From the NCBI GenBank assembly GCA_937920555.1, contig CAKZTM010000010.1:1790-65789 (forward strand): a stretch of DNA of 64,000 bases. The letters run 5' to 3'. The position numbers and the translations under genes were made by a program. Positions 373 to 15,778 of this stretch are shown here, piece by piece. This DNA is from an uncultured Rhodobacteraceae bacterium. Lineage in GTDB: Bacteria > Pseudomonadota > Alphaproteobacteria > Rhodobacterales > Rhodobacteraceae. The notes beneath the pieces are model-generated. The model was not told where the DNA came from. It made no database searches and worked only from the letters and a program-made list of their open reading frames with translations. The number at the start of each line of letters is the position of its first letter. Position 1 is the stretch's first letter.

Positions 373-3300
373 TTAGTACTTGCCGATCAGGTTCACAAAC
401 CAACCCTCGGACGAATAACTTTGATTGGTTAGATCGTCGGAAAAATCGGTCATGTTGTAGCCGGCGCCCAGCTTCACATTCTCATCAAAGCGCCGGTAGA
501 CACCAACAAGCGCGCCTGCTTGGCTGGCATTGGCCGCTTGTGTGTCAAGAACGCGGTATTCGCCCAAAACATCCCATGACTGGCTGACACGGTAGTCAAC
601 ACGGGCAATGGCCAGGGTCGCATCGCTATCGATCCAAGGGCCGTTTAGAGCCGTGTCCCTGATTGAACCAAAACGCCCACCAATCTTGCCGCCAACCGAC
701 AATTTCGGGGTCACATCGTAAATCGCATCGACGGAGACAACATGGCTAATCTGCTCATAATCCAGCGCAGAGGCCGCAGCACCCACCTGACCGGGCGTGC
801 CGGTGTCGTAAAGATACGTGTATTTGAACAGCATATTGAGCCGGTCATTGTCGACCGGACGGTAAGCGGCACCTGTGATCACCTCGACAAATTCGGCATC
901 GCCCGTGGCCGCTGTGGTATTGGAAACAGAGGCACTCAACCGGCCCAAAACACGCCAGTCCTCAGACACTTGGTATGAAGCTGTATTGCGCGTCGTCCAT
1001 GTCTCGCGCGTATCAGCGCCTCGGTCAGTCCGGTACTCCAACACCGACGAGTATCGGGCGCTTTCTGTCGAATAATTAGCATTGAAACTCACCGAACGGC
1101 GGGTCAGATCACCGCTCACCGGATCGCTCAGATTACCGGCTTCACCCTTCAGGCCCAGCGTCCACGATCCTTCGGGCGCGTAATCAATCCCGAAGGCGTT
1201 GGTAACACCAGTCGGCCCATCACCATGCTGATAATTTTGTTCCGCCAACAGGGTCACGTTTTCGGTCACTCGGGTCGATCCGCCAAGCGTAAATTGACCA
1301 AGACGGCCCTGATAATCCGCAGCCTCCCGCTCATTGGTCAAATCGTAGCTGGAATAGATCTGGGAGCGCTCATTGACTTGGTAGCTGCCCGTCAGGCGCG
1401 CGCCGAAACCCCCGTCTCCATCAGACACTTCCCCACTCAAAGCGAGACGCTCAGTCGGGGTCCAAGTGGTGCCAAGACCGACGCGGTTATTGTCCACACG
1501 ACTGCCGGATTTGTCCAAAGTGCCTTGAATATAACCGTAAACATCGACGCGGGGCCCAAGCCCGTAGTCAAGCCGCAGCACACCATCAAGCCGCGAGCCG
1601 TTGGTCGACAGCGTTGTGCTGGCACTGGCCGTTCTTGTGGTGATATCGTCTTGCCGCAGACCCGCACTGATCGCCAAACGCGGCGAGATCGTGTAGCTGA
1701 TCGCCCCCTCAATCGCTGTGGAGGTCTGGCTTGCGGCGTCTTTCTCATCGTATTTTAAACGCAGCTTTGAGCGCGCCGAGACGATAAGATTGCCGTCTGC
1801 CGTCAGCTGGGTCACGTCCTCATTGGTCTGCTCACCGGGGCCGGAAAATCCAGCGTCCCGCCGTTGCCAGACGATGCGAATATCGCCGTCGCCGCGGCCC
1901 AGCTCGCCAAGATCAGCGGCCAGCTCAATACGCGCAGCGCCCGCGCTGTCACCGGCAGCGGCGCCGGGCACGGTTGTGAAGGTGAAACCACCATCGATAG
2001 ACCGCAAGGTGGGCGAGCCGTTATCTTCGGACTGGGCGCCCTCAACACGCAAATATGTGTTGGGCGTGGCAAAGATCGTCGCATCCACACCGGTCAGCGA
2101 TTGCGCCTCCACATTGCCGTCCTGTTGGAGCGTGGCCGCCCCGAGTTTGATCCGGTCGGTGATCCAGTAAGAGCCGGACGCCCCCAAAACCAAGTCATTG
2201 GTGGAGGTGAGGCCGGGCGAATATTCGTAAGTGATCACAAGGAACTGCTGGGTATTTCCCGTAGAGCCAGAGACCAGCGCCCCGTCCGAGCCCGAAGACA
2301 AAAGCGGGTTGAGCAACTGAATGCGGCCCTGAATGGCGTTCATCTCATAGTCGGCGCCGGCAGCCAGCTCTTGGCGGGCCAGAACAAGACCCGTTACAGG
2401 GTCGCGGGTTTCGATATGGGCGCGCTCCGAGCCGCGCAAAAGGTCACGGTTGCGCAGGTAGTAGAGCGACCCGCCTGTGCCGCGAAATTCCTCGCGCGAC
2501 TGCACTGTGCCGGGCTCTGCTGCAAACACCTCAATCTCGCCACGCGGCGCACCGTTACTGGTGGTTGTGGTGGTTCCAGTCCGAAGCCGTGCGCCATAAA
2601 GCGAGCGGGAGAAATCCGTAAATGTGGTGTCAGGTCTGCGGGTTTTGAAATTGCCCCAAAGAACCTCCGAGGGGCCCTTTTCCAGTCTGACGAACAGCTT
2701 TCCGTCTGTGGGCGCATCGTTAAAGGCGGTCGAGTCGTCGCCGTAAACCGGGTAGAATTGATCGGGGTCCAACCGACGCAGGACCGAGCGTGGATCTTTG
2801 TCCAGGAAGTTGTCGAACAGGTCTGAAATCGGGCCTTCGCCGGTATCAGCAGCCGCCGTCAAAAGCCAATCGCCGCGGACCTTGCCTTTGAGGTAAAACG
2901 CCAGCCGCCCATCCACAAAAATATTCTCGTCAAACTGATCGTCCCCGGTCACCGCTTGAATTGGGCCGGTGGTGTCGTTTTGGCCCACGGTGATGTCCGC
3001 AAGGCCCACATAGAACCAGTCTTCATCGGCAATTGCTACGTCTTGGGACGTGCGGCGCAAGATGCGTCCGTCGCCATTGACCACCTCAACACCCACAATC
3101 CTCGGCCCTTTGGGCAGAATTTGGGTCGTAGAAAAGCGGCCATTGGCATCTACAGGCACTTCCTGACCCATGAAGCGCACGCGCTCCAGACGCCCAACGC
3201 CGGAGCCATCTGCCGTGACCGCGCCACCACTGACCGGAATACGGCGCTGCTGCACGGAGTTTTCTTGAGCATAAAACAACAGCTCGCCGCGTGTTGGCGC

Positions 3301-3759
3301 TTCACCCACGCCAAGCCCCAAACGTTTGGGCGCTGTCTGATCAAAGCGCCCACGGGCATCATAGACACGCAAGACGTAATCGACCTCACCCTCGGCATCG
3401 GCACCCAAGGACCATGTGGCAATGCCGCCGGGTTTTATCGGCAGAATGCCCAACGGCTCGCCATTGGGATCACCACCGGGCAACAGGACACGGACCTCCG
3501 CCCGGTCAAAAAATGAGGTGTAGTTGGACCACGCACGGAATTCGACCGGCGTTCCCGGCCCCCTGCGCACCCAACCTTGAACATTGAGCTGTGGCTCGCG
3601 CGCCTCGGGGGCATAGCGTAGGTTCAGCGCCCCCGCTTGTTGCGCCGCAACCGCCTGTGGCTCTTCAACGCTGATCGTAAACGGCACGCTTTGCCCGTAG
3701 GCGCTTAGCGTTGTCGTCAGCAAAAGCGCCCCTGCGCAGCCTAGAATAGCCCCCCTCAT
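373..3759 (-). CDS. Large outer-membrane beta-barrel protein, uncharacterised (1128 aa)
   Basis: N-terminal signal peptide MRGAILGCAGALLLTTTLSAYG|Q. The C-terminal half shows a regular amphipathic beta-hairpin pattern and ends ...GWFVNLIGKY (aromatic terminal residue typical of OMPs). No hydrophobic helices. The ATG at 3757-3759 overlaps the TGA of the upstream giant gene. Confidence 0.75.
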   Translation of the reverse strand: MRGAILGCAGALLLTTTLSAYGQSVPFTISVEEPQAVAAQQAGALNLRYAPEAREPQLNVQGWVRRGPGTPVEFRAWSNYTSFFDRAEVRVLLPGGDPNGEPLGILPIKPGGIATWSLGADAEGEVDYVLRVYDARGRFDQTAPKRLGLGVGEAPTRGELLFYAQENSVQQRRIPVSGGAVTADGSGVGRLERVRFMGQEVPVDANGRFSTTQILPKGPRIVGVEVVNGDGRILRRTSQDVAIADEDWFYVGLADITVGQNDTTGPIQAVTGDDQFDENIFVDGRLAFYLKGKVRGDWLLTAAADTGEGPISDLFDNFLDKDPRSVLRRLDPDQFYPVYGDDSTAFNDAPTDGKLFVRLEKGPSEVLWGNFKTRRPDTTFTDFSRSLYGARLRTGTTTTTSNGAPRGEIEVFAAEPGTVQSREEFRGTGGSLYYLRNRDLLRGSERAHIETRDPVTGLVLARQELAAGADYEMNAIQGRIQLLNPLLSSGSDGALVSGSTGNTQQFLVITYEYSPGLTSTNDLVLGASGSYWITDRIKLGAATLQQDGNVEAQSLTGVDATIFATPNTYLRVEGAQSEDNGSPTLRSIDGGFTFTTVPGAAAGDSAGAARIELAADLGELGRGDGDIRIVWQRRDAGFSGPGEQTNEDVTQLTADGNLIVSARSKLRLKYDEKDAASQTSTAIEGAISYTISPRLAISAGLRQDDITTRTASASTTLSTNGSRLDGVLRLDYGLGPRVDVYGYIQGTLDKSGSRVDNNRVGLGTTWTPTERLALSGEVSDGDGGFGARLTGSYQVNERSQIYSSYDLTNEREAADYQGRLGQFTLGGSTRVTENVTLLAEQNYQHGDGPTGVTNAFGIDYAPEGSWTLGLKGEAGNLSDPVSGDLTRRSVSFNANYSTESARYSSVLEYRTDRGADTRETWTTRNTASYQVSEDWRVLGRLSASVSNTTAATGDAEFVEVITGAAYRPVDNDRLNMLFKYTYLYDTGTPGQVGAAASALDYEQISHVVSVDAIYDVTPKLSVGGKIGGRFGSIRDTALNGPWIDSDATLAIARVDYRVSQSWDVLGEYRVLDTQAANASQAGALVGVYRRFDENVKLGAGYNMTDFSDDLTNQSYSSEGWFVNLIGKY

Positions 3760-6700
3760 TTGATCGATCCCTTCACTGTGGCCGGTAAGGCTCTTATTTC
3801 TGATTGTACGTTAAGCGGATAACAGGCTGAGCCTTCGCGGTCCCAGCCATTTCGCAATGCGTTTGCGACATTGGCGAGACGTTGCTGAGCCAAGGGCGAT
3901 TGACCCATATGCTGGATCAGCACCGATGACGGCGCATCCGACAGAACCCCGCCTGGCATGTTTTCGATAGCGCTCGAAAGCTGCGGTCCAAGACCTGTTC
4001 CACCGGCCTCAAAGGCATCGTCGAACAACTCCATGCGAACAACCCGGAACGGCGCCGCGCCGAAGTTCAGCTTGGCCAATTTACCGCGTGTCACACGCAC
4101 TGTTTTGGGATTGCCGCATGTCATCCGGTAGCCCATCGGCAATGTACGCTCATCGACCTTGGCAATGAAGTTGGAGCCGCGATACGCATTTGGCACTTCA
4201 GCGCATGGCACGCTGTAGCGACCGGCTTGATCAGTGGTGATCAACGTTCCGCGCACAGTGGCGATTGTGACGCCTGAGATACCAGCCTCGCCCGCGTCCT
4301 GCACACCATTGCCGTTGCTGTCTGTGAAGACCCGACCAATGATGTCGGAGCAATCAAACAGCGGGTCAGTGCCAAGGCGCACCGCAGCGCTTGCGATATT
4401 GGACACGATGGTGGAGGCGGCCGCGTTCTCGGTCCATGTCTCATTGACATATTCACCGTCGCCCACACCTGCACTCACCACCAGCATCAATTTGAGCGTC
4501 TTTGTCTCGCCCGCAGCGAAGTCCTGCCCGGTCCAAGTCAGCGTGCGGCCTGAAACCGTGGGCTCAATCGCCACACCGTCAATGCTTGCGGTGCCTGCGC
4601 GGTACACAAAGCCCGGCGGCATTCGGTCCACCAGATCAAGGTTCGGAAGCGCATTGCCCAGACTGTTTCGCGCCGTGATCGTGTAAGGCACTACCGCGCC
4701 GCGTGTCACATCGACCCGAGGCGTGGTTTTGGTCATCGCAATCACACCGGTCAAAATCGGATCGAGCGGGATGTGATTGTTCACGATGTTCGAGGACACG
4801 CCGATGGTGATATCAAAGTCGAAATAATACTGCGTGCTGCCCTGATTGCTGGCGTTGAACCCGGCAGAGCTTGCAGGACAAGTCGCAGGATCATGGATCG
4901 TGGAGCCTTGCACCGGCGCTGCATTATCGTCCTGCACCAAAGATGGGTCAGGCACCGCAGACACAATGATCGGGTTTGAACAGGCCGGAATGACCTGAGA
5001 GGGCGCTGGCTGATAGCCACCCGGTTGGCCCACAGTCAGCGTGTAAGTCCCGCTTGGTGCCGTGGCATTCAACAAGAACTGATAGAACCCGTCCGCACCG
5101 GTTGTGACCGTCGTAGAGCCGCCCACAACGTCAGCCGCGACAAACCCCGCAGGACCGCTGATCGTGACGACCGCGCCGGATACCGGCTGACGGGTCACAC
5201 TGTCATAGACCACACCTGCCGGATCAAGCGGCAAGCTCTGCTCGATAGTGTTGGTTCCAGCGGACAGTGAAAGTCCTGTCAGAGTACCGCTTGAGTTATC
5301 AGCACCGGCCGGGTTGGTCGTTGGATCGACCGCACCATTGGTAAAGGCCGCGCCGCTCTCATTGGGCACAGGACGCCCGAAGATCGCACCATTTGTCGGC
5401 TCTCTAAACTGGATTTGATAGCCCGTTCCCGGAATGATGTTAGAGATCAGATACGCCCCGGAGCTATCGGTGATGGCCGAACCAACAACCGTATCGGTGC
5501 TGTCCAACAGCTCCACGGTCCAACCGGGGACGCGAGTTTCGCCCGCATCCAGAGCGCGGTCATGATCTGTATCCTCCCAAATCGTACCGGCAACTGAGGC
5601 ACTGAGCGAAACCGCAACAGGATCGGTGTCCGTGTTGTTGCCTTGCACGCCCAAAGGCTCTGCCCCGCCAGAGATCACAGAGCTGGCCGTCAGAATGGAG
5701 CCCGAGATGCCTGTACCGGTGAGGGTCGAAACCATGATTTGAGGCGCGCTGCCGCCCGACGTGATCACATCGCTGCTTGTACATGTCACATCTTGACCAG
5801 AGACCGAACAGGTCCAGCCCGTGCCCATACCACCCGTCGGCGTGATGCCTGCGGGAAGCGTGGTGACAATCGTAACTGGACCAGAACTGTCAACCGAGCC
5901 CACATTTGAACCGGTGACAAGGAACTTACCCTGATCATTACCTTCCGCGAAGCTCGCAGGCGTGTGGGTGATGGTCACCGTCAGATCGGGCGCGGGTCCG
6001 GGGACTTCCGCAAAATCATTATTGGCCGAAACCGTATTAGCGCCGGTCAGATCAATACCTGCGATCTGGCTTGAGGTCGCAGTTGGATTGCTGGCCGTTC
6101 CACCTGTCGACCCGGCGGTCGTGATACCGTTGGTGGTGCTGGCAGGCTGGGCCGGTTGATCGATCGTATATGTCCCCGCAGGCAGGCTCAGGAAAGCATA
6201 TGTGCCATCTGTCGCTGTCGTCGTTGACGCAGTGACCGACGTGCCGTTGATGTCCAATCCGGTAAGATTGATCGTCTCACCCCCCAACCCATAGTCGGAG
6301 CCGTTGACGGTGCCGCTATTGTCAAAGTCGAAGAATACCAGCCCCGAGAGGGTCCGCGCATTGGGAACTTCGGCAAAATTATTGGCCGTCGATGCCGCGT
6401 TGGGCGGCAAGATAATCGTGGAGATTTGGCTAGGTGTTGTACCCGCAGCCGTACCAGTGCCCGGTGTGCCGCCATTGGGCACAGCACCCGGCGTCACAAT
6501 CCCGTCGGACGTATTGGCCGCCTGATTGGGCTGACGCACGGAATATGTGTCAGGCGACAGACTCGTGAAACTATAGTCGCCATTCGCATCGGTGGTCGTG
6601 TTGGTGATGAAACTGCCGCCGCTGTCCAAAAGCTCGATCGTCTCACCGACCAAAGCGGTATCCGCGCCATTGCGAACGCCGTTGTTGTTGAGGTCGAGGA

Positions 6701-9700
6701 ATACGTTACCCGCAATTGAAGACAAGGTAACCTCGGCAAAGTCATTGCCCGGTGAGCCCGACACATCGCTGCCGCTGCTGCCGAGGATGATATTGACGAT
6801 CTCCGAAGACGTGGCCGTGGGATTGGAGGCCGCACCGGCCGTGCCTGTGCTGGCTCCCACTGTGGCGATGGTTCCCGCCGTGGTGATGCCGTTTTCGGTT
6901 CCGCTTGGCTGGGTCGGCTCACAGACCGAATACGTGCCTGCGGTGAGCGGGAAGAACAGATAGTTGCCAAGACTGTCAGTGGTGGTTGTCTGTGTGGCGG
7001 CACCCGAACAATTGGCCGCCGTATGAAGCTCGATCGTCACCCCGCCAAGGGCCGTATCGGTGCCACTGTCAAACGCACCGTTTGGTGTCGTGTCATTATC
7101 TGCCCACACCTGACCAGAGATATAACCCTCGGTGCTGATCGCAAGATCGGCAGATGCAGGCGCCGGATTTGGCCCCACATTGGTCTGCAAATCGCCGGTT
7201 GGAATGACGCCTGTATAATCACCCGGAACTGTGCCTGTGATATTGACGGTGATCTTACACCCACCTGCCGGGATCGTATCACCACTATCGTAACTGATCG
7301 TGGCGGAGCCTGCGACGGCGGTCACCGTACCGGGGCATGTGGTCGTGATCCCCGGCGTGCCATCGACCAGAATACTCCCCGGAGAGATGGGCAGGTTGTG
7401 ATCAAACTGAGATGTCAGCGTAATGGCTTGCGGGTTTGGATTGCCAAGCGTGATCATAGCCATGGACGTGCCGCCCGGTGCAATAACCGGGGGCGTATAT
7501 GATAGATCGATGCTGGGGGGATCGGCGATGATGATCTCCGCGCGGGTTTCTTCTGCGTTGGTGACGCCTTCAATCGAGGTCACGCCGCCAACGGGAATGT
7601 CGTCAATATAGCTACCGGACACATTCGACAGAACATCAACCGTCACCGTACAAGCACTATTGGCTGCAAGACTGGCACCGGTGAGCTGAATGCTTGTACC
7701 GGACACGGCCGCACCCACCGCGCCGCCTGTACAGGTCGTGGACGCATTGGGCGACGTGGACAGAACAAGCCCGCTTGGCAGGGCATTGTCGAACGCAACA
7801 CCGGTCAAACCGGAGGTGTTGGTGTTGCGCAGCCGGATGGTCAAAGTCTCTGGCGTGCCGGCAGTGGTAAACGCAGAGCCGGTCGTGAAGCCCGAGCCTG
7901 ATTGGATCGCCGTATCAAGGGTCTCGCCATCAATGGCGATTTGAACCTCCAAAGCGGCCTTGGAGCGCAATGTATCCGTTGCAGGTGCCGTATTCGACAC
8001 CGGCGCACCGCTTGCGGTTGCGCTCACTTCGCCGGGGTTGATCGTGTTGATGAAGTCCCCTTGCGTGGACGTGATGACATCCACTTCAAGCACACATGTG
8101 GCAGGTGTCGCACCGGAGGCTGCGGCCAATACACCGCCTGTAAGGGAAACTTGATTGGACCCAGCCGTGCTGATGGTTCCGCCAGAACATGTGGTTGTTG
8201 GATTGGCGCCGGGCGGAATTGTAATGCCGGCCGGGAAATTGTCGTTGATTGACAGCCCCGTCAACGGGCTGTTGGCCGGGTTAAACAATGTGATTTGAAG
8301 CCGCGACCGCTCGCCAATTCCCACGGTTTGCGGCGAGAACTGTTTGGTCACGCCGATATTGGACTGGGTGGTGATGCTGGTGGTGGCCTGATTGCCGTTG
8401 GTATAACCCTCGGCAGTGGTGATCGAGCTTACTGGGATGAAATTCGTTATCCCGCCCGCCTGAACCGACGTGATATTCACCGAATACTGACAGACCTCGC
8501 TTGCGGTCATGGATGCACCGCTCAACGTCACAGAATTACCACCAGGTGTTGCTGAGACAGAGCCGCCGGTACATGTGGTCGCAACAGACGGTGTGCCTGC
8601 AATGACGATGCCGTTATCGGCTGAACCCGACAGGCCGTCTGTGGTGAAGAAATCCGTCAGGGTCAGATCACTTACGGCATTTGCGCCATTGGTGATCTCG
8701 ATGGTCAGACGGGAAATCTCACCGGGGAAACTCAAGGTCGACGGGCTTGTGAACTCGGACACGAGAATGCTCTGGGACGGAAGAAGTCCCAGCGTGGCCG
8801 AGAATGAATTGACGTTAATCACGCCACCATCTGCTGTAAGATTGCCTGTGGGGACCGTGTTCACCCAAGGCGCACCGCCGGTCGCGGTGACATCAAAGAC
8901 CAGATCACATGTGCCGCCCCCTGCAACTGTCGCACCGCTCATGGAGATCGAGCTGGCCCCGCCTGCACCCGTGATCACAGGTGATCCGGCACAGGTTGTG
9001 TACGCATTTGGTGTGGCTGCCAAAGTCATGCCAGCCGGAAACGGGTCCGTGACGGCAACGCCTGTTAGCGCACCTGTGCCCGCATTTGCGAACCGGATGA
9101 TGACCGTGGAAATACCACCCGAAAAGATGCTGGTGGGCGTGAAGCTCTTTGAGGCGGACAGCGCCGACGCATAGGTCAGGCTGGCGGCGTTGCTGGTCGC
9201 AGCAACCCCCACAGCGGGCCCGCCATTGGCAGGTGTTGCATCCGCAGTACCGCTCACGGTGTTGGAGTAAACGCCAGCGGCACCCACAACACGGAACTGC
9301 AATACGCACGAGCCCGACGAGCCAAGTCCGCTGGAGGCTCTGGCGGGAACACTACCACCGGTGAGGGTCACAGACGTGTCACCCGGATTGGCTGTGATGA
9401 TACCACCGCAGGTGCTTGTCGCTGCAGGTGTGCTGGCCACAAAAAGCTGTTGGCCCAGTGATCCAATGGGAAGAGCATCGCTCAGTGACAGGTTGGCCAG
9501 CGCTTGGGCAGACCAGTTCGAAACGGTGATCGTCAGAAGAGAATCAGTACCCTCAAAGGTCGAAGACGGCGCAAAGCTGTTCACAATCGCCATCGTTGGA
9601 ATTTCGCTAACAGTGACGTTGTTGGAGGCAACTTGATTGGACCCGCCACTGAATGTGACACTACCAACGGGCAGATTGTTGGTGTCGCCGCCCCCGGCTG

Positions 9701-11465
9701 GATCGGATTGCACCCAATAGGTGATCACGCACGAAGATGTGGTGTTCACATCCGCACGGCCCGGCAACGACCCAATCGTAAAGCTAGGATTGGTCTCACC
9801 CAGCGTATTGCTTTCGGTCAAACCACCACAACCGGACATGGACGGCGTAAAGTTAATTCCGCCGATCGTTCCGGTCAGAAGCGATTGGCCCGCAGGAAGT
9901 GCATCCAGAACGTTGACATTGGGAATGGCTGCGGCGCCAAAGTTTTCAACGGTCGCTTGATATCGGATCGGATTACCAGCGGCCGCTGAAGACGGGCTGG
10001 CTGCAATCGAGACACGGATATTATCGCCAACCAAGATGCTGTCATTGGCATCGTCATTGATGATGGTCTCGCCGGCAATGGCCCCAGCGCTGACATCGCC
10101 CTCGTTAATTGTGTTGGAAAAGGTGATCGGTACACCCGCGGTTTGAACAACACCTGTAAAGTTCGTGGTAATCGTACAAGTGGAGCCCGGCGCAATCACG
10201 CCGCCAGTCCAAGTGAACCCTTCGGACGCGCCTGTCACCGAGATCGAGCCGTTGGTGCCACCCCCGGTACAACTGACCGCCGGGGTGCCATTGATGGTCA
10301 GCCCGTATGCGGCGGCTGTGTTATCGTCAATCTGCGCATCACTAAAAGAACTCACGGTGATCGCCGACAGCGCATTGTTGATAAACACGATCTCCATGTC
10401 ATCGGACTGACCTGTCGCCAGCTCCGCATTCAGAAAGTTGACAGTGGTATCGAGCGGGGACCGCAATGTGATCGTACGGTTTGAGTTTGAGCTCAGAGGC
10501 ACGCCGATATCATTGGTGAAGGACGAGGCCAAAATCTGGTTGCTGACGCTGGTTTGGTAGACGCCGCCGGTTCTCAGACCCTCAATACGGACAGTGAATG
10601 TACAAGATCCGTTGGTCGCACCGGAACGCGCAGGAAGTGTACCTGACATGGTCAGGGTTGTATCTCCGGCGGAGGGTGTGAAAGTCGGTGCGGCCCCGCC
10701 ATTGTTACAGGTTGCGGTGGCCCCCGGCGTCGAGAACACGTGAAACGCCGGATTGCCCGAAATGAGAGGGAAAATATCGCTAAACGAGAAATTGGGGATC
10801 TCAAACGCGTTTGTGTTGGTCACCCGAATTGTGAGCGTCTCATCGGACCCACCAAGAATGAGCCGACTGCTGCCCGAGACCGTATGTGTCGTAATGCTTG
10901 GAAGATTGAGCGAATTGACCACGATCGACTGGCTCACCGCGCCCGAGTTAAGCAGCGTGCTTGCACCGTCATTGCCGCTGACAGCACTGTCGGGGATGGT
11001 GTACACGTAGGTCGCCACGTTGCCGGTGGAGGTTCCGGCCGTCACAGGAACGGTAATTTGACACTCACCGTTAATGCCGCCGGATCCCGCCGGAATAGTG
11101 CCGCCCGACAGGCTCAAAGTTTGCCCGGTTGCCGTCAAAGTTCCTGATCCCGCCGTCGTGGTCGGGCCTGCGGGGTCGGTACACTGATAGGTCGGGGCCC
11201 CATTTACGAACAAACCATCGGGCAAAGTTCCCGGAAGCGTTGTTGAGAATGCGACCGAATTCAGAGCATTCACCTGATCGCTGTTGGACAGCGTAATGAC
11301 CAAATCTTTGTTTTCGAGAGGGTCGATATTCCCGGTTGCGCCGACAGTGACCGAGGCACCTAAATCGGCGCGCGCCTGTGTGGCTAAGGTCGTCAGGAAG
11401 AAAATTGAAAGAAGAGTGATAATGGTCTTAAGGCGGGCGGTCGTCCGGGTTTTTGGGGCTCGCAA
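3756..11465 (-). CDS. Giant secreted repeat protein / putative surface adhesin (2569 aa; DUF11-like conserved-repeat modules plus SdrD/Cna B-like domains)
   Basis: TTG start at 11463-11465 with AGGA about 10 nt upstream. Sec-type signal ...LATQARA|DL. Ten modules of about 140 aa, three tandem 124-aa SdrD-B-like repeats each ending N(D/N)FAEV, further DUF11-like and Cna-B-like domains, and a unique C-terminal ~97 aa. Confidence 0.85.
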   Translation of the reverse strand: MRAPKTRTTARLKTIITLLSIFFLTTLATQARADLGASVTVGATGNIDPLENKDLVITLSNSDQVNALNSVAFSTTLPGTLPDGLFVNGAPTYQCTDPAGPTTTAGSGTLTATGQTLSLSGGTIPAGSGGINGECQITVPVTAGTSTGNVATYVYTIPDSAVSGNDGASTLLNSGAVSQSIVVNSLNLPSITTHTVSGSSRLILGGSDETLTIRVTNTNAFEIPNFSFSDIFPLISGNPAFHVFSTPGATATCNNGGAAPTFTPSAGDTTLTMSGTLPARSGATNGSCTFTVRIEGLRTGGVYQTSVSNQILASSFTNDIGVPLSSNSNRTITLRSPLDTTVNFLNAELATGQSDDMEIVFINNALSAITVSSFSDAQIDDNTAAAYGLTINGTPAVSCTGGGTNGSISVTGASEGFTWTGGVIAPGSTCTITTNFTGVVQTAGVPITFSNTINEGDVSAGAIAGETIINDDANDSILVGDNIRVSIAASPSSAAAGNPIRYQATVENFGAAAIPNVNVLDALPAGQSLLTGTIGGINFTPSMSGCGGLTESNTLGETNPSFTIGSLPGRADVNTTSSCVITYWVQSDPAGGGDTNNLPVGSVTFSGGSNQVASNNVTVSEIPTMAIVNSFAPSSTFEGTDSLLTITVSNWSAQALANLSLSDALPIGSLGQQLFVASTPAATSTCGGIITANPGDTSVTLTGGSVPARASSGLGSSGSCVLQFRVVGAAGVYSNTVSGTADATPANGGPAVGVAATSNAASLTYASALSASKSFTPTSIFSGGISTVIIRFANAGTGALTGVAVTDPFPAGMTLAATPNAYTTCAGSPVITGAGGASSISMSGATVAGGGTCDLVFDVTATGGAPWVNTVPTGNLTADGGVINVNSFSATLGLLPSQSILVSEFTSPSTLSFPGEISRLTIEITNGANAVSDLTLTDFFTTDGLSGSADNGIVIAGTPSVATTCTGGSVSATPGGNSVTLSGASMTASEVCQYSVNITSVQAGGITNFIPVSSITTAEGYTNGNQATTSITTQSNIGVTKQFSPQTVGIGERSRLQITLFNPANSPLTGLSINDNFPAGITIPPGANPTTTCSGGTISTAGSNQVSLTGGVLAAASGATPATCVLEVDVITSTQGDFINTINPGEVSATASGAPVSNTAPATDTLRSKAALEVQIAIDGETLDTAIQSGSGFTTGSAFTTAGTPETLTIRLRNTNTSGLTGVAFDNALPSGLVLSTSPNASTTCTGGAVGAAVSGTSIQLTGASLAANSACTVTVDVLSNVSGSYIDDIPVGGVTSIEGVTNAEETRAEIIIADPPSIDLSYTPPVIAPGGTSMAMITLGNPNPQAITLTSQFDHNLPISPGSILVDGTPGITTTCPGTVTAVAGSATISYDSGDTIPAGGCKITVNITGTVPGDYTGVIPTGDLQTNVGPNPAPASADLAISTEGYISGQVWADNDTTPNGAFDSGTDTALGGVTIELHTAANCSGAATQTTTTDSLGNYLFFPLTAGTYSVCEPTQPSGTENGITTAGTIATVGASTGTAGAASNPTATSSEIVNIILGSSGSDVSGSPGNDFAEVTLSSIAGNVFLDLNNNGVRNGADTALVGETIELLDSGGSFITNTTTDANGDYSFTSLSPDTYSVRQPNQAANTSDGIVTPGAVPNGGTPGTGTAAGTTPSQISTIILPPNAASTANNFAEVPNARTLSGLVFFDFDNSGTVNGSDYGLGGETINLTGLDINGTSVTASTTTATDGTYAFLSLPAGTYTIDQPAQPASTTNGITTAGSTGGTASNPTATSSQIAGIDLTGANTVSANNDFAEVPGPAPDLTVTITHTPASFAEGNDQGKFLVTGSNVGSVDSSGPVTIVTTLPAGITPTGGMGTGWTCSVSGQDVTCTSSDVITSGGSAPQIMVSTLTGTGISGSILTASSVISGGAEPLGVQGNNTDTDPVAVSLSASVAGTIWEDTDHDRALDAGETRVPGWTVELLDSTDTVVGSAITDSSGAYLISNIIPGTGYQIQFREPTNGAIFGRPVPNESGAAFTNGAVDPTTNPAGADNSSGTLTGLSLSAGTNTIEQSLPLDPAGVVYDSVTRQPVSGAVVTISGPAGFVAADVVGGSTTVTTGADGFYQFLLNATAPSGTYTLTVGQPGGYQPAPSQVIPACSNPIIVSAVPDPSLVQDDNAAPVQGSTIHDPATCPASSAGFNASNQGSTQYYFDFDITIGVSSNIVNNHIPLDPILTGVIAMTKTTPRVDVTRGAVVPYTITARNSLGNALPNLDLVDRMPPGFVYRAGTASIDGVAIEPTVSGRTLTWTGQDFAAGETKTLKLMLVVSAGVGDGEYVNETWTENAAASTIVSNIASAAVRLGTDPLFDCSDIIGRVFTDSNGNGVQDAGEAGISGVTIATVRGTLITTDQAGRYSVPCAEVPNAYRGSNFIAKVDERTLPMGYRMTCGNPKTVRVTRGKLAKLNFGAAPFRVVRMELFDDAFEAGGTGLGPQLSSAIENMPGGVLSDAPSSVLIQHMGQSPLAQQRLANVANALRNGWDREGSACYPLNVQSEIRALPATVKGSIK
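6003..7115 (-). repeat. Three tandem ~124-aa SdrD B-like / Cna-B-type coding repeats inside the giant gene
   Basis: GQVWADNDTTPNGAFDSGTD...NDFAEV; GNVFLDLNNNGVRNGADT...NNFAEV; GLVFFDFDNSGTVNGSDY...NDFAEV. Codons 1451-1821 by frame arithmetic. Confidence 0.7.
7116..11366 (-). repeat. Array of 10 divergent ~140-aa coding repeats (DUF11-like, two conserved Cys each) inside the giant gene
   Basis: Recurrent motifs of the type ..L.I.V.N.....L.....D.LP.G.., then T(T/S)C.GG, then G.C...V.V. Ten copies were counted by the second-Cys motif (GECQITV ... GGCKITV). Confidence 0.7.
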
Positions 11466-11523
11466 CTTACTTTGATCCTTTTCGGACAGCCGGTTTTTAC
11501 GTCTCGACGTTGAATTCCGCTTG

Positions 11524-11574
11524 AGGGCGGTTTGGGGGTGTCAGGGCGTTTGGGGTCTCGGCTGTTGGTGGGGG
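11524..11574 (+). repeat. G-tract tandem repeat in the leader region of the giant gene (AGGGCG(G)TTTGGGG x2 plus GGTGGGGG)
   Basis: AGGGCGGTTTGGGGG (11524-11538) and AGGGCGTTTGGGG (11543-11555), then GGGGG at 11570-11574. It fits the G3+N1-7 x4 quadruplex pattern on the + strand, which is the template strand for the minus-strand gene. Confidence 0.5.
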
Positions 11575-11733
11575 TTCCGTAGCGGGAACATTGCACAAAT
11601 CTTTAATGGTAAATCAAATATATCTTTCCAAAACACATGCAAATGTCGCCATCAAAGTCCTGAATGTTGCAAAATTGTAATACTGAATCCCAGGGGCTAC
11701 TGGAAAAATCAAACAAGTTTTAATGAAGTTCAC

Positions 11734-11747
11734 GCGCGACGTCGCGC
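11734..11747 (-). terminator. Perfect 14-bp GC palindrome about 40 nt downstream of the small OMP gene (possible terminator hairpin or operator)
   Basis: GCGCGACGTCGCGC. On the minus sense it is followed by a T-rich stretch (..TTGTTTGATTTTT..). Confidence 0.3.
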
Positions 11748-11784
11748 CGATTACTATAGACTTCGGGAAAAAACGGGGGCGAGC

Positions 11785-12450
11785 TTAGAACGAAAAGCCT
11801 GCCCCGACAGTCACCGAATTGGTAACAACGCCGGTGGACAGATTGCCACCACCATCAAGATCGACATCAAGATCGATCAGATTCATCTGGTACTGGCCAA
11901 AAACTGACCAGTTCTCTGTAACTTCGTATTCCACACCGCCCTGGAATTGCGCGACAATGCCGCCGTACTGATACTCCGTCGTGCGTTGACCAGAGCTGGA
12001 TGTCTGAATATCGACCCCGGGTACGGCTACGCCAACACCACCCGCAACAAACGGGGTCCAACGACTTCCCATCGGAAATTTGCGCCGTGCATTTACAGTG
12101 ACGGTGTTAATGCCGTCATCGAATTCCAAAACCGAAAAGCCGGACGCGGCCAGACCCGCATCATCCGCCGATGCCTGCAATCTGGTAAAATCAAGCGAAT
12201 ATCCGGTCGTATCCGATTGCCACCATGTGCCGCGAATACCAAAAACCGGCGGTAGCGAGGATGAATTTGCCGTCCAACCGGTGTTGAAATCAAACGATCC
12301 TGCGCCTGTTGGATCATTTCCTGATACATCGGATCGGCCCAAATTAAACAAGCCACCATAAACGGACAGCTGAAAATCGTCCGCGCTTGCCGGGCTCGAA
12401 AGCACCAACATTGCACAGAAAACCAGCGATTTTCGCATCACGTAAGCCAT
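11785..12450 (-). CDS. Small outer-membrane beta-barrel protein (OmpW/OmpA-TM/opacity-type, 221 aa)
   Basis: Signal peptide ...VLSSPASA|DD, alternating beta-strand pattern, C-terminal ...VTVGAGFSF. Confidence 0.7.
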   Translation of the reverse strand: MAYVMRKSLVFCAMLVLSSPASADDFQLSVYGGLFNLGRSDVSGNDPTGAGSFDFNTGWTANSSSLPPVFGIRGTWWQSDTTGYSLDFTRLQASADDAGLAASGFSVLEFDDGINTVTVNARRKFPMGSRWTPFVAGGVGVAVPGVDIQTSSSGQRTTEYQYGGIVAQFQGGVEYEVTENWSVFGQYQMNLIDLDVDLDGGGNLSTGVVTNSVTVGAGFSF

Positions 12451-12480: not shown

Positions 12481-12936
12481 CTACGTTTCATTCCAAAACC
12501 CAACCTGCCGCATCGCCTCGCCGAGCGCGATACCCGCGCTCATAGCCACATTCATCGACCGACCGCCACCTGGCATCGGCAATAAAAGCATCTCATCCGA
12601 ATTGTTTGCAACTTTGGTTGGCACGCCAGCCGACTCCCGACCGACGAGTAATATATCATCACTTTCGAAGTTAAAATTCCATAACGACTTGGGCGCTTTG
12701 GTTGTTAACAAAACGATTCGTGACGCATCGTGGCATTTGAGAAACGCTTCCCAGTCATTGTGACGCGTAATGTCCGCAATATCAGCGTAATCCATCGCAG
12801 ATCGGCGCAACGCCTTGACGGAAAACGGGAATCCGCAAGGCTCGATCACATCAATTGGCACCCCAAAACACGCGCAAAGCCGGATCATAGCCCCGAGATT
12901 CTGCGCAATATCGGGTTGATAGACGGCCAATCTCAC
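12481..12936 (-). CDS. trmL: tRNA (cytidine/uridine-2'-O)-methyltransferase, SpoU/TrmL family
   Basis: RLAVYQPDIAQNLGAMIRLCACFG...LLVGRESAGVP...IPM.GGGRSMNVAMSAGIALGE are typical TrmL motifs. The GTG at 12936 has AAGGGA 7 nt upstream. The ORF could extend to the ATG at 12975. Confidence 0.8.
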   Translation of the reverse strand: MRLAVYQPDIAQNLGAMIRLCACFGVPIDVIEPCGFPFSVKALRRSAMDYADIADITRHNDWEAFLKCHDASRIVLLTTKAPKSLWNFNFESDDILLVGRESAGVPTKVANNSDEMLLLPMPGGGRSMNVAMSAGIALGEAMRQVGFWNET

Positions 12937-13086
12937 AAATTTATCCCTTTTTAATGTCCTGCGGCGCAAAGTCATCTGGACCAGCCTGCGCTGTCAGTAT
13001 ATCTGCCTAACGGAAGAGTGCACCTGTGCTCAATCATGTTTCTAAGAGCCGCCTCAGAATGGGGCCAGACTTTAACGGAGGACCCT

Positions 13087-13644
13087 TTGTCCCACGCTGA
13101 AGAAGACACCGGCAACCGCCGAGATTTCCTTTATGTCGCAACTGCTGCAGCTGGCGCTGTTACTGCGGGTGCGGCCATTTGGCCGTTGGTCAATCAAATG
13201 AACCCTTCTGCGGATGTGCAGGCGCTCTCATCGATCGAGGTTGATGTGGACGGTCTGGAACCGGGATCCCAGATCACGGTGAAGTGGCTCGGCAAGCCCG
13301 TATTCATTCGCCGCCGGACGGAACAAGAGATTGCCGACGCGCGCGATGTCCCACTGGCGGACTTGCCCGATCAGGGCGCGGAAAACGAAAACAGACGCGA
13401 CGCGGACGCGGCCGACGCGAACCGAACGCTGGATGAGGCCGGGGAATGGCTGGTCATGATTGGCGTTTGCACCCATCTGGGTTGTGTTCCTTTGGGCGAT
13501 GCGGGTGATTTTGGCGGCTGGTTCTGCCCATGCCACGGCTCACATTACGATACGTCTGGCCGGATCCGCAAAGGCCCAGCACCCAAGAACCTTCCGGTTC
13601 CAATTGCGGAGTTCATCTCCGATACAGTCATTAAACTAGGTTAA
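13087..13644 (+). CDS. petA: Ubiquinol-cytochrome c reductase Rieske iron-sulfur subunit
   Basis: Rieske boxes CTHLGC and CPCHGS, and a Tat-like RRDFLY. The TTG at 13087 aligns with the Rhodobacter PetA N-terminus (M)SHAE..RRDFLY and follows GGAGGA. The ORF track extends to 13018. Confidence 0.9.
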
Positions 13645-13656
13645 GGGAGAACACTC

Positions 13657-14976
13657 ATGGGCGGTATCCCACACGACCACTATGTTCCTAAGTCGAATTT
13701 CGAGAAGTGGCTTGATGCGCGGCTTCCAATTGTAGGCCTTCTTTATGGCACATTGATGATCCCGACGCCAAAGAACCTCAACTGGATGTGGATTTGGGGG
13801 ATTGTTCTTACCTTCTGTCTCGTTCTGCAAATTATCACCGGCATCGTTCTGGTCATGCACTACACGCCGCATGTGGATCAGGCTTTTGCCTCGATCGAGC
13901 ATATCATGCGCAATGTGGAAGGTGGCTGGGCCATCCGGTATATCCACATGAACGGCGCTTCGCTGTTCTTCATTGCCGTCTATGCGCACATGTTCCGGGG
14001 CCTTTACTATGGCTCCTACAAGGCACCACGGGAGATTACGTGGATCATCGGCATGCTTATTTATCTAGCGATGATGGCAACGGGCTTTTTGGGCTACGTG
14101 CTACCATGGGGGCAGATGTCCTTTTGGGGTGCGACGGTGATTACCGGCCTGTTTGGCGCGATCCCCGGCATTGGTGAGCCTATTCAGACATGGCTTCTTG
14201 GCGGCCCTGCGGTCGATAACGCCACGCTGAACCGTTTCTTCTCGCTCCATTATCTTCTGCCCTTCGTAATTGCCGGTCTGGTGATCGTCCATATCTGGGC
14301 GTTCCACACAACCGGTAACAACAACCCCACCGGCGTTGAAGTGCGTCGCGGATCGAAAGAGGAAGCAGCCAAAGACACAGTGCCGTTTTGGCCCTATTTT
14401 GTGATCAAAGATCTTTTTGCGCTCGTGGTCATTCTGGCGGTTTTTGCGGCTATCGTAGGCTTTATGCCGAATTATCTGGGTCACCCGGACAACTATATCG
14501 AAGCCAACCCGCTGGCCACACCAGCCCATATTGTACCGGAATGGTACTACTTGCCATTCTACGCGATCTTGCGGGCGATCACTTTTGATGTGCTCTTCCT
14601 GGATGCGAAATTCCTGGGCGTGCTTTGCATGTTCGGTGCAATCTTCGTGATGGTATTGGCGCCCTGGCTTGATACATCCTCGGTGCGCTCAGGTCGGTTC
14701 CGGCCAATGTTCAAGTGGTGGTTCGCCATTCTTGTCATCGACTTCTTTGTTTTGATGTGGTGTGGCGCGAGACCTGCTGAGGGCATGGTGCCAACGATCT
14801 CGCTGATCGGGACAATCTACTGGTTCGGCTATTTCTTGATTATTCTGCCAATCTTGGGCGTGATAGAGAAGCCGCTGCCGCAGCCTGCCACAATCGAAGA
14901 AGACTTCGACGCCCACTACCCGCCGAAAGCTGGTGTCGCTGATGGCACAGCAACAGCCACCCAACCGGCAGAATGA
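13657..14976 (+). CDS. petB: Cytochrome b
   Basis: [28 protein letters not shown]... is highly similar to the Rhodobacter cytochrome b N-terminus. Multiple TM helices; AAGGGAGA Shine-Dalgarno site. Confidence 0.95.
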
Positions 14977-14992
14977 GCTGAGGGATAGAAAA

Positions 14993-15778
14993 ATGATAAA
15001 ACAAACACTTCTCAGCTTGGGCCTTGCTTTGGGTCTTGCCACGGGTGCGAATGCAGCTGGTGGCGAGAGCCATATCGAAGACTTCGACTTCTCGTTCGAA
15101 GGCCCTTTTGGCAAGTTTGACCAGTTCCAGCTTCAACGCGGGCTTCAAGTCTTCACCGAGGCATGTTCCGCGTGTCACGGCTTGCAATATCTGTACTTCC
15201 GCAATCTTCACGATGAAGGTGGTCCGGGCCTACCCGAAGATCAGGTTAAGGCCTATGCCAAAGACTTCTTTGTCTACGACGCCGAAATTGATGAGGATCG
15301 CGAGGCGAAGCTGTCAGATCGGTTTCCCCCTGTTGTAGACTCGACAGCGCCAGATCTGACGTTGATGGCAAAAGCCCGCGCAGGATTTCATGGACCCGCC
15401 GGTCTGGGCATCAACCAGATCGTCAAAGGCATGGGTGGGCCTGAGTATATCGCCTCTATCCTGACCGGCTACACCGGTGAAGAGAAAGAAGAAGCAGGCC
15501 AGGTATTTTACGAAAACACCGCGTTTCCCGGTGGCTGGATCGCAATGCCACCGCCGCCCATTTATGATGGCGAGCTGGAATTTGCAGATGGTCACGCCAA
15601 CGACGCGCATCATGTGTCAGAAGATGTAGCCGCATTTCTAATGTGGACAGCAGAGCCGAAGATGATGGCCCGCAAGCAGGCAGGCCTGACCGCTGTAATC
15701 TTCCTGTCGGTCCTTGCAGCGCTGTTGTACCTGACAAACAAGAAGCTTTGGGCGCCGATCAAACGCAAGTCACAATAA
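14993..15778 (+). CDS. petC: Cytochrome c1
   Basis: Signal peptide [21 protein letters not shown], haem motif CSACHG, C-terminal TM anchor. The ATG at 14993 has GAGGGA upstream. The ORF track extends to 14933, overlapping petB. Confidence 0.9.

Follow-up and report, generated by a model that had tools for sequence, protein, structure and literature searches.

A conserved gene pair encoding a giant adhesin-type protein and a very large outer-membrane barrel: a candidate translocon-plus-anchor module from an uncultured Rhodobacteraceae bacterium

The two genes described here lie on the minus strand of a 64,000-nucleotide stretch of DNA (the window) from an uncultured Rhodobacteraceae bacterium (NCBI GenBank assembly GCA_937920555.1, contig CAKZTM010000010.1, positions 1,790 to 65,789 of the forward strand). 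They encode a giant fibrillar-adhesin-type protein of 2569 amino acids (aa) and, directly downstream, an outer-membrane partner of 1128 aa that is predicted to form a very large beta-barrel. The two proteins very probably act as an obligate functional pair, and their sequences suggest that they probably constitute a self-contained, stoichiometric translocon-plus-anchor module which exports and anchors the giant adhesin, with topology, export route and adhesion inferred. The minus-strand junction of the two genes reads ...atcaaATGAgggg, where four bases are common to both, and together with the open reading frame (ORF) coordinates it confirms the ATGA overlap of the two frames that had been described in a first-pass annotation made from the letters of the window. 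An AAGGA stands 11 nucleotides 5' of the TTG start of the giant gene, and the translational coupling of the pair fits a 1:1 complex of giant and partner. The features of the locus are collected in Table 1.

Table 1. Features of the adhesin/barrel locus, with positions counted within the window
Feature	Position	Strand	Description and basis
Outer-membrane barrel partner gene	373..3759	-	1128 aa, ATG start; ORF list, translation
Transmembrane beta-hairpin region of partner	376..2193	-	aa 523-1128, ends ...GWFVNLIGKY; DSSP of AlphaFold2 (AF2) model, predicted local distance difference test (pLDDT) mostly 76-93
Most conserved core of partner	2200..3024	-	aa 246-520; motifs YPVYGDDST, DAPTxGK, FRGTGGSLYYL
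Two beta-sandwich domains of partner	3034..3630	-	aa 44-242; AF2 pLDDT ~78-84
Signal peptide of partner	3694..3759	-	aa 1-22; read from translation; model helix at residues 2-16
ATGA stop/start overlap, translational coupling	3756..3759	-	giant TGA 3758-3756, partner ATG 3759-3757
Giant fibrillar-adhesin-type gene	3756..11465	-	2569 aa, TTG start; ORF list, translation, Pfam, TIGR01451
Conserved C-terminal module of giant	3759..4850	-	aa 2206-2569: CLIPPER, SdrD_B, terminal beta-alpha-beta-alpha-beta domain; AF2
Terminal beta-alpha-beta-alpha-beta domain of giant	3792..4046	-	aa 2474-2558; weakly OmpA-like, without peptidoglycan-binding motif; AF2 secondary structure
Middle stalk of giant	4851..7205	-	prealbumin/SpaA-like, SdrD_B and CarboxypepD_reg-like domains; Pfam
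Variable N-terminal stalk of giant	7206..11366	-	~10 tandem ~140-aa modules, DUF7933 type, one Cys pair each
Sec signal peptide of giant	11367..11465	-	aa 1-33, ...ATQARA/DLG; read from translation
Spacer 5' of giant gene	11466..11784	-	319 bp; G+C 47% vs 58%

The giant opens with a Sec-type signal peptide (LRAPKTRTTARLKTIITLLSIFFLTTLATQARA, followed by DLG), and its domain content makes it an ordinary member of the CLIPPER/SdrD_B class of fibrillar adhesins, with adhesion itself suggested by the types of its domains. Tandem CLIPPER, DUF7933 and SdrD_B stalk domains stand behind the signal peptide in the Pfam, NCBIfam and AF2 analyses: Pfam finds eight copies of DUF7933 (7.8e-99), five of SdrD_B (1.3e-55), four of DUF11/CLIPPER and SpaA-type prealbumin domains, NCBIfam matches the TIGR01451 repeat, and the N-terminal ~100 residues of the mature protein match no family. 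CLIPPER is the new name of DUF11, the structure of which has been solved from a Gram-negative adhesin, and CLIPPER, DUF7933 and SdrD_B-type domain families are known to form the stalks of fibrillar adhesins (PMC12617251). The composition of the giant is extreme, with 13.9% Thr, 12.0% Gly, 10.8% Ser, 10.7% Ala and only 0.7% Lys (17 residues), and its 30 cysteines form 15 regularly spaced intradomain pairs (95/135 and 253/288 through to 1377/1403 among them). Three of the 17 lysines (773, 1041 and 2246) occupy a domain-start position resembling that of known isopeptide lysines. Because lysines are few and each module has a single cysteine pair, most of the isopeptide-type domains probably cannot form a canonical lysine isopeptide bond, and the protein is presumably stabilised mainly by disulfides, as the cysteine pairs and scarce lysines indicate.

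A Thr/Gly/Ser/Ala-rich, lysine-poor protein with paired cysteines resembles many structural surface proteins, and its adhesive role is read from domain types only. The giant could then be an envelope scaffold rather than an adhesin, that is, a periplasmic or outer-membrane-surface structural component, S-layer-like or of the sheath kind, which is organised by the barrel. This explanation is decidedly unlikely: a row of ~22 tandem immunoglobulin (Ig)-like domains would be long enough to span the periplasm several times over, the stalks of fibrillar adhesins are made of the identical domain families (PMC12617251), the N-terminal region varies strongly, as would be expected of exposed tips, and one Sinorhizobium copy of the pair adjoins GGDEF and AraC regulator genes.

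Conservation is distributed very unevenly along the adhesin-type giant. The N-terminal stalk shares only ~16-26% identity with distant homologues (best high-scoring segment pair, with uncovered positions counted as zero), the identity begins to rise around residue 1900, and it reaches ~44% over the last ~650 residues. Such a contrast between a conserved C-terminus and a variable N-terminal stalk would be expected if the C-terminus acted as anchor or secretion determinant, and the C-terminal module is accordingly proposed to be the docking, plug or anchor part of the protein. AF2 models the last 364 residues with high confidence (pLDDT 88.6), and in Foldseek the model matches SdrD, Gram-positive pilins and the CLIPPER structure 9ifr, onto which the CLIPPER domain superimposes with a template modelling (TM) score of 0.75. 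Cys2372 and Cys2421, which pair within the SdrD_B domain of the module, are invariant among homologues. The matches of the whole C-terminal model are dominated by Ig-like domains and leave the last domain of the chain unmatched, and this beta-alpha-beta-alpha-beta domain has no family match either. A profile of it searched against the PDB places three OmpA-like structures at the top (3td3, 5u1h and 3wpw; Omp38, OprF and PomB) at non-significant E-values of 0.7-1.2, and hhalign aligns it to the OmpA domains of the partner family over 37 columns with a probability of 48% and an E-value of 1.8e-4. The similarity to a degenerate OmpA-like fold is weak and is treated as a lead.

The partner likewise starts with a signal peptide (MRGAILGCAGALLLTTTLSAYG, followed by Q), behind which come two presumably periplasmic beta-sandwich domains, a conserved core and a long series of beta-hairpins; translation and AF2 model thus agree with the signal peptide, sandwich-like region, hairpins and C-terminal ...GWFVNLIGKY that had been picked out by eye. 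The AF2 model was built from 35 homologues and is of moderate quality (pLDDT 72, predicted TM score 0.51). DSSP assigns 33 confident strands to residues 523-1126 and at most 42 strands of at least 7 residues from residue 248 onward, so that a barrel of ~34-42 strands is the estimate drawn from the DSSP string. A C-terminal Tyr or Phe is kept across the partner family, and an aromatic C-terminus of this kind is the signal carried by substrates of the barrel assembly machinery (BAM). Within the core, identity to distant homologues peaks at 65-71% in residues 281-360 and 401-440 (window positions 2680-2919 and 2440-2559; 40-residue bins) and lies at 43-55% in the other bins of residues 246-520. 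This same core is the least confident part of the model (pLDDT 42-76, mean ~56), and it may serve as a gate, plug, docking or partner-binding element.

The partner falls into no characterised family. Pfam gives a sub-threshold match to the generic OMP_b-brl model and nothing else, NCBIfam gives no match, and searches of the PDB yield nothing meaningful by sequence and nothing by profile, which agrees with the first-pass annotation, where the protein could be assigned to none of the usher, Omp85/TpsB, LptD, TonB-receptor or porin families. A structural comparison with the PDB by Foldseek yields only the generic large barrels MtrB, LptD, BtuB, SlpA and FimD, with TM scores of 0.09-0.27 and 7-13% identity; MtrB and LptD lead the list (TM 0.15-0.27), and FimD has a TMq of 0.14 and a TMt of 0.19. 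No Omp85, ShlB or POTRA model is matched in Pfam by the window partner or by two of its homologues at E-value limits of 0.01 to 1, and neither giant nor partner contains an Autotransporter or IAT_beta barrel domain; fused members of the family have the large barrel in its place. The giant has no TPS (haemagglutination activity) domain in Pfam, and its conserved region is C-terminal instead. These Pfam results accord with the earlier remark that the giant has neither a TPS domain nor a barrel of its own nor a POTRA-bearing partner. Usher, PapC_N and PapC_C domains are likewise missing from the Pfam results, as are Por_Secre_tail/CHU_C and SprA-family matches from those of Pfam and NCBIfam.

RefSeq labels on the homologues are inconsistent and range over 'OmpA family', 'TonB-dependent receptor', 'outer membrane protein transport protein', 'MotB' and 'hypothetical'. 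The 'TonB-dependent receptor' label was rejected, as the Sulfitobacter protein that bears it matches neither the plug nor the TonB_dep_Rec model in Pfam or NCBIfam at E<=1, and the window protein behaves likewise. Such labels on plasmid homologues ('TonB-dependent receptor', 'OmpA family protein' and 'outer membrane protein transport protein') and the presence of MtrB, LptD, BtuB and FimD among the top structural matches might be taken to mean that the partner belongs, in diverged form, to a known outer-membrane family, whether TonB-dependent transporter, usher, LptD-like protein, MtrB-like sheath or Omp85/autotransporter. This is very improbable, given that Pfam and NCBIfam models remain unmatched even at E<=1, that PDB profile and sequence searches recover none of these families, that the Foldseek scores reflect a generic likeness between barrels, and that plug, TonB box, POTRA domain and chaperone gene are all missing.

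As a family of its own, the partner is widespread. A word-indexed search recovers more than 3281 homologues, the family comprises 4833 cluster representatives (clusters at 50% identity) in an exhaustive profile search, 2095 of which score E<=1e-30, and a scan of genomes at species level places the family in at least 590 genomes from several phyla. Carriers are found among the Alpha-, Beta- and Gammaproteobacteria (Paracoccaceae, Thiobacillus, Methylobacillus, Polaromonas, Pseudomonas, Marinobacter and Microbulbifer) and beyond the Proteobacteria in Desulfuromonadota, Nitrospiraceae, Elusimicrobia and Acidobacteriota. The window protein displays what defines the family, namely full-length homology including the core motifs, a C-terminus of the form ...G(K/T)(F/Y), and a DUF11/SdrD_B giant which in the family is either encoded upstream or fused. 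Most homologues are 1380-1790 aa long and carry an N-terminal OmpA domain (PF00691), with or without a SPOR domain, ahead of the sandwiches; in Pfam the window partner has no PF00691 match, and its Rhodobacterales relatives also lack the N-terminal OmpA domain. Sequence comparison indicates that OmpA is an accessory domain and not the defining feature of the barrel family.

The linkage of the two genes is strict. Wherever a locus includes upstream DNA (79 loci, spread over Alpha-, Beta- and Gammaproteobacteria, Desulfuromonadota, Nitrospiraceae, Elusimicrobia and Acidobacteriota), the partner gene is immediately preceded by the C-terminal module of a giant. Among the 77 scored loci, the genes share 4 bp in 38 cases and a single bp in 12. 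An overlapping pair that recurs in 50 of 77 loci, with the module upstream in 79 of 79, is not a chance arrangement, and the pair is thus kept as overlapping neighbours well beyond the Rhodobacterales, the range for which the first-pass annotation had proposed a neighbourhood check. Clustering of all ORFs of at least 80 aa in 81 loci reveals no third gene conserved with the pair: apart from the two pair genes and their shadow ORFs, it yields only a generic response regulator, present in 18 loci. Neither a chaperone gene nor Por/Gld accessory genes are conserved beside the pair in these 81 loci.

The pair also travels on plasmids, and 26 PLSDB records carry the partner family. In both plasmid records examined, Sinorhizobium meliloti T073 accessoryA and Sulfitobacter guttiformis pSG53, a giant DUF11 gene stands directly upstream of the partner. 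The giant of pSG53 reaches ~6195 aa, and its partner is the protein labelled 'TonB-dependent receptor'. On the S. meliloti plasmid the pair adjoins AraC-family and GGDEF genes, which hints at regulation linked to cyclic di-GMP. In Microbulbifer sediminum (NZ_JAJSAP010000001.1) two matches lie ~16 kb apart on one contig and have identical ORF coordinates and context in the ORF scan, an indication that the complete module may be present there in tandem or in duplicate.

Giant and barrel also occur as a single polypeptide. Among the 150 best cluster representatives of the partner family, 28 are proteins of 2000-6889 aa with the barrel module at the C-terminus, a proportion that is no frequency, as cluster representatives may favour long fused sequences. 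Pfam analysis of two such proteins and inspection of the termini and junctions of 17-19 give the order signal peptide (in most of those examined), DUF11/SdrD_B stalk, conserved C-terminal module, linker or OmpA domain(s), sandwiches and barrel. The fusions end in ...GKF or similar, some have OmpA domains between stalk and barrel, and no hydrophobic stretch resembling a signal peptide is found at the junctions. Three fusions are unbroken ORFs in three independent assemblies, one of them on a 243-kb contig of an NCBI metagenome-assembled genome. For the fusions examined, an origin as frameshift or assembly artefacts is ruled out by the missing partner signal peptide, the diversity of the linkers and the three intact ORFs, and their sequences indicate that they are real and arose with differing linkers. 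In three long members (P0254, P0272 and P0283) the barrel module is preceded by at least three OmpA domains in tandem, and a subgroup (P0339, P0341, P0355, P0364 and P0386) is without the terminal beta-alpha-beta-alpha-beta domain and has the motif ...WITEDP..DPRLDV before the match to the barrel profile. This variety among the long members suggests several architectural subfamilies.

The fusions and the accessory domains together constrain the topology of the system. OmpA and SPOR domains bind peptidoglycan, and the N-terminal end of the partner is therefore periplasmic; the fusions join this end to the C-terminus of the giant, and the C-terminal module would therefore be periplasmic or lie within the barrel. 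With ~22 Ig-like domains of adhesin type, variable towards the N-terminus, the stalk is most plausibly extracellular. If the stalk is outside and the C-terminus inside, the point at which the chain passes the outer membrane must lie within the C-terminal module or a short way ahead of it, and going by the conserved gene content the barrel is the only conserved candidate conduit. The 15 cysteine pairs and the 0.7% lysine content would fit disulfides that form in the periplasm ahead of export, which in turn would call for a wide channel.

In the mechanism proposed on these grounds, giant and partner would both reach the periplasm via Sec, and BAM would insert the 1128-aa partner into the outer membrane as a ~34-42-strand barrel whose N-terminal beta-sandwiches remain periplasmic, where in most homologues they would be joined by the peptidoglycan-binding OmpA or SPOR domains. 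The C-terminal module of the giant, with its CLIPPER, SdrD_B and OmpA-like-fold domains, would dock at or inside the barrel and stay on the periplasmic side, and the variable N-terminal stalk of ~2200 residues would thread through the barrel to the cell surface. The stalk would consist of Ig-like domains, the paired cysteines of which are consistent with one predicted intradomain disulfide each, and the very wide barrel would let domains through that are already folded and disulfide-bonded. The first-pass annotation had proposed a dedicated two-gene module for surface display or secretion, a proposal which the conserved pair, the family-less barrel and the natural fusions support at the level of sequence. 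The OmpA-like elements on the peptidoglycan side and the conserved C-terminal module of the giant go beyond that annotation and extend its interpretation without altering it.

The peptidoglycan-binding domains found on the partner in most homologues, the weak OmpA likeness of the terminal domain of the giant and the inclusion of SlpA, a tether of Deinococcus, among the generic Foldseek barrels would also be compatible with a barrel that serves as an anchor only, which with its OmpA or SPOR domains (in most species) tethers the C-terminal module of a giant that leaves the cell by type II or another pathway. No other secretion genes are kept near the pair in the 81 loci, though, and anchoring would need a far smaller barrel than one with more than 34 strands. 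The fusions, moreover, place the stalk covalently upstream of periplasmic OmpA domains and barrel, and a surface-exposed stalk that is fused to a barrel must cross the membrane in cis, most simply via its own barrel. Anchoring without export is for these reasons an unlikely explanation, and the combined translocon-plus-anchor function remains the preferred one.

Several points weigh against this combined function. The strand number, the size of the lumen and the presence of a plug are estimates from a moderate AF2 model (pLDDT 72), and the window partner itself is without the OmpA domain on which the topology argument from the homologues rests. That the stalk is exposed at the surface is an assumption based on its domain types, the functional claims as a whole are deduced from sequences and models, and the OmpA-like call on the last domain of the giant, with its E-values of 0.7-1.2 and hhalign probability of 48%, is a weak one. 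No energy source or chaperone is evident for the pair.

Compared with the type V, I and IX, chaperone-usher, TonB-dependent and LptD systems, the pair stands apart in that the defining features of each of them fail here at the level of sequence. The closest general resemblance is to types Va and Vb, which also combine Sec delivery with one dedicated outer-membrane barrel and one very large repetitive passenger, either as one polypeptide (passenger N-terminal, barrel C-terminal) or as two adjacent genes, and with which the pair shares that it encodes no ATPase or inner-membrane component. As in a classical autotransporter, the passenger would be outside, a segment would lie in the pore and the barrel would start at the periplasmic face. 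The barrel, however, is estimated at ~34-42 strands, whereas that of an autotransporter has 12 and Omp85 has 16 together with POTRA domains; the conserved region that may serve in recognition is C-terminal in the giant, whereas type Vb passengers have an N-terminal TPS domain; the passenger is made up of Cys-paired Ig-like domains instead of a beta-helix; and periplasmic beta-sandwiches and OmpA/SPOR domains are placed ahead of the barrel. Type Ve proteins (intimin and invasin) likewise have an N-terminal peptidoglycan-binding domain followed by a barrel and expose an Ig-like chain, but their passenger is C-terminal to a 12-strand barrel, whereas here it forms the N-terminal part or a protein of its own. 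Nor does the pair match IAT_beta, and the peptidoglycan-binding domain is OmpA or SPOR where type Ve has LysM.

In barrel size the pair is closer to type IX secretion, whose translocon SprA is a 36-strand barrel that lets folded cargo through. Both have a very large single-chain barrel, and in both the cargo would be Sec-dependent, fold in the periplasm and bear a conserved C-terminal signal or anchor domain. A barrel of ~40 strands, if the model is right, would equal or exceed SprA, the largest barrel known. Unlike type IX systems, the pair has no Por/Gld motor or accessory genes and no Por_Secre_tail/CHU_C domain, it occurs in Proteobacteria and other phyla outside the Bacteroidota, and SprA is not among the top Foldseek matches of the partner. 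The CLIPPER adhesins of Bacteroidota are exported via type IX (PMC12617251). Chaperone-usher systems resemble the pair in that a large barrel with periplasmic beta-sandwiches handles Ig-like modules, and FimD is among the generic Foldseek matches; they differ from it in that usher Pfam domains and a chaperone gene are missing here and that the fibre would be one covalent polypeptide and not a polymer of subunits. MtrCAB and LptDE also have large (26-strand) barrels that enclose a membrane-spanning partner polypeptide, and MtrB and LptD are the top structural matches, but the TM scores are 0.15-0.27, no family hidden Markov model is matched, and the enclosed polypeptide would be an adhesin stalk and not a cytochrome or lipoprotein. 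With type I export of the RTX/LapA-like kind the differences lie in the Sec signal of the giant, in a motif search of the protein that finds no GGxGxD (RTX), and in the absence of ATP-binding cassette (ABC), membrane fusion protein (MFP) or TolC genes near the pair, where the neighbours are a small outer-membrane protein (OMP), SpoU, petABC and dxs. The giant is also free of LPxTG. Signal, motifs and gene inventory thereby stand as the first-pass annotation had reported them.

Among described proteins, the Gram-negative CLIPPER/DUF11 adhesins, such as B9T28_05395 of Acinetobacter silvestris (PDB 9IFR), share their stalk domain families with the window giant, which differs from them in its presumed reliance mainly on Cys pairs, with few candidate isopeptide lysines. 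The Acinetobacter silvestris protein is reported to have an 'OmpA-like anchoring domain' at its end, and the same survey is silent on outer-membrane export in Proteobacteria and on a barrel partner (PMC12617251).

The surroundings of the pair in the window are unremarkable. The spacer on the 5' side of the giant gene is presumed to be its promoter or regulatory region, but it contains no Rfam family and no detected riboswitch or other RNA element, no strong sigma-70 match is found in it, and the promoter and terminator scan does no better there than with shuffled sequences. Beyond the spacer, upstream and on the same strand, lies the gene for a small OMP of 221 aa and the 8-strand type (11785-12450, minus strand; Pfam OMP_b-brl, 3e-12), and a palindrome at 11765-11816 follows this gene, between it and the giant gene. 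The small OMP was considered as a third component of the module and rejected, since it is not kept beside the pair in other loci (ORF clustering, 81 loci) and is set off by the 319-bp spacer. Further upstream, positions 12481-15778 hold a SpoU-family methylase gene and a complete petABC operon (Rieske protein, cytochrome b and cytochrome c1), and on the other side dxs lies convergently, downstream of the partner gene. With such ordinary housekeeping genes next door, the adhesin pair is in no obvious mobile island in this genome.

The domain class of the giant is already known, and the new part is the barrel family and its pairing with the giant. No published account of the giant/barrel pair was found in open-access full text, subscription literature being outside the scope of the search, and the open-access literature that names DUF11 holds nothing on a proteobacterial DUF11 protein paired with a barrel. 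Two apparent leads were discarded, as the DUF11 mentioned in a Brucella review is really DUF1134 and the DUF11 proteins of a Syntrophobacterium paper are archaeal. For giants with a Sec signal and DUF11/CLIPPER domains but without the signature of type I, V or IX, no export route has been described in Proteobacteria, the CLIPPER survey included, and the locus offers a concrete, testable candidate: a single dedicated barrel of very large size, unaccompanied by any other conserved component. The barrel family itself counts thousands of members, which occur in several phyla and are in part plasmid-borne; no curated model covers it, and its RefSeq names are inconsistent or wrong.

It is conceivable, if at present somewhat doubtful, that the pair represents an undescribed and widespread type of outer-membrane export and display, in which a single-chain barrel of ~40 strands first passes and then retains a folded, disulfide-bonded Ig-like giant, which exists in fused and split forms and which is independent of the Omp85/autotransporter lineage. 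If this is true, the pair would add a further route of secretion and anchoring at the outer membrane and would be an extreme new case for BAM-dependent barrel assembly. It would also amount to a minimal system of two genes, or of one, for the display of very large folded proteins on Gram-negative cells.

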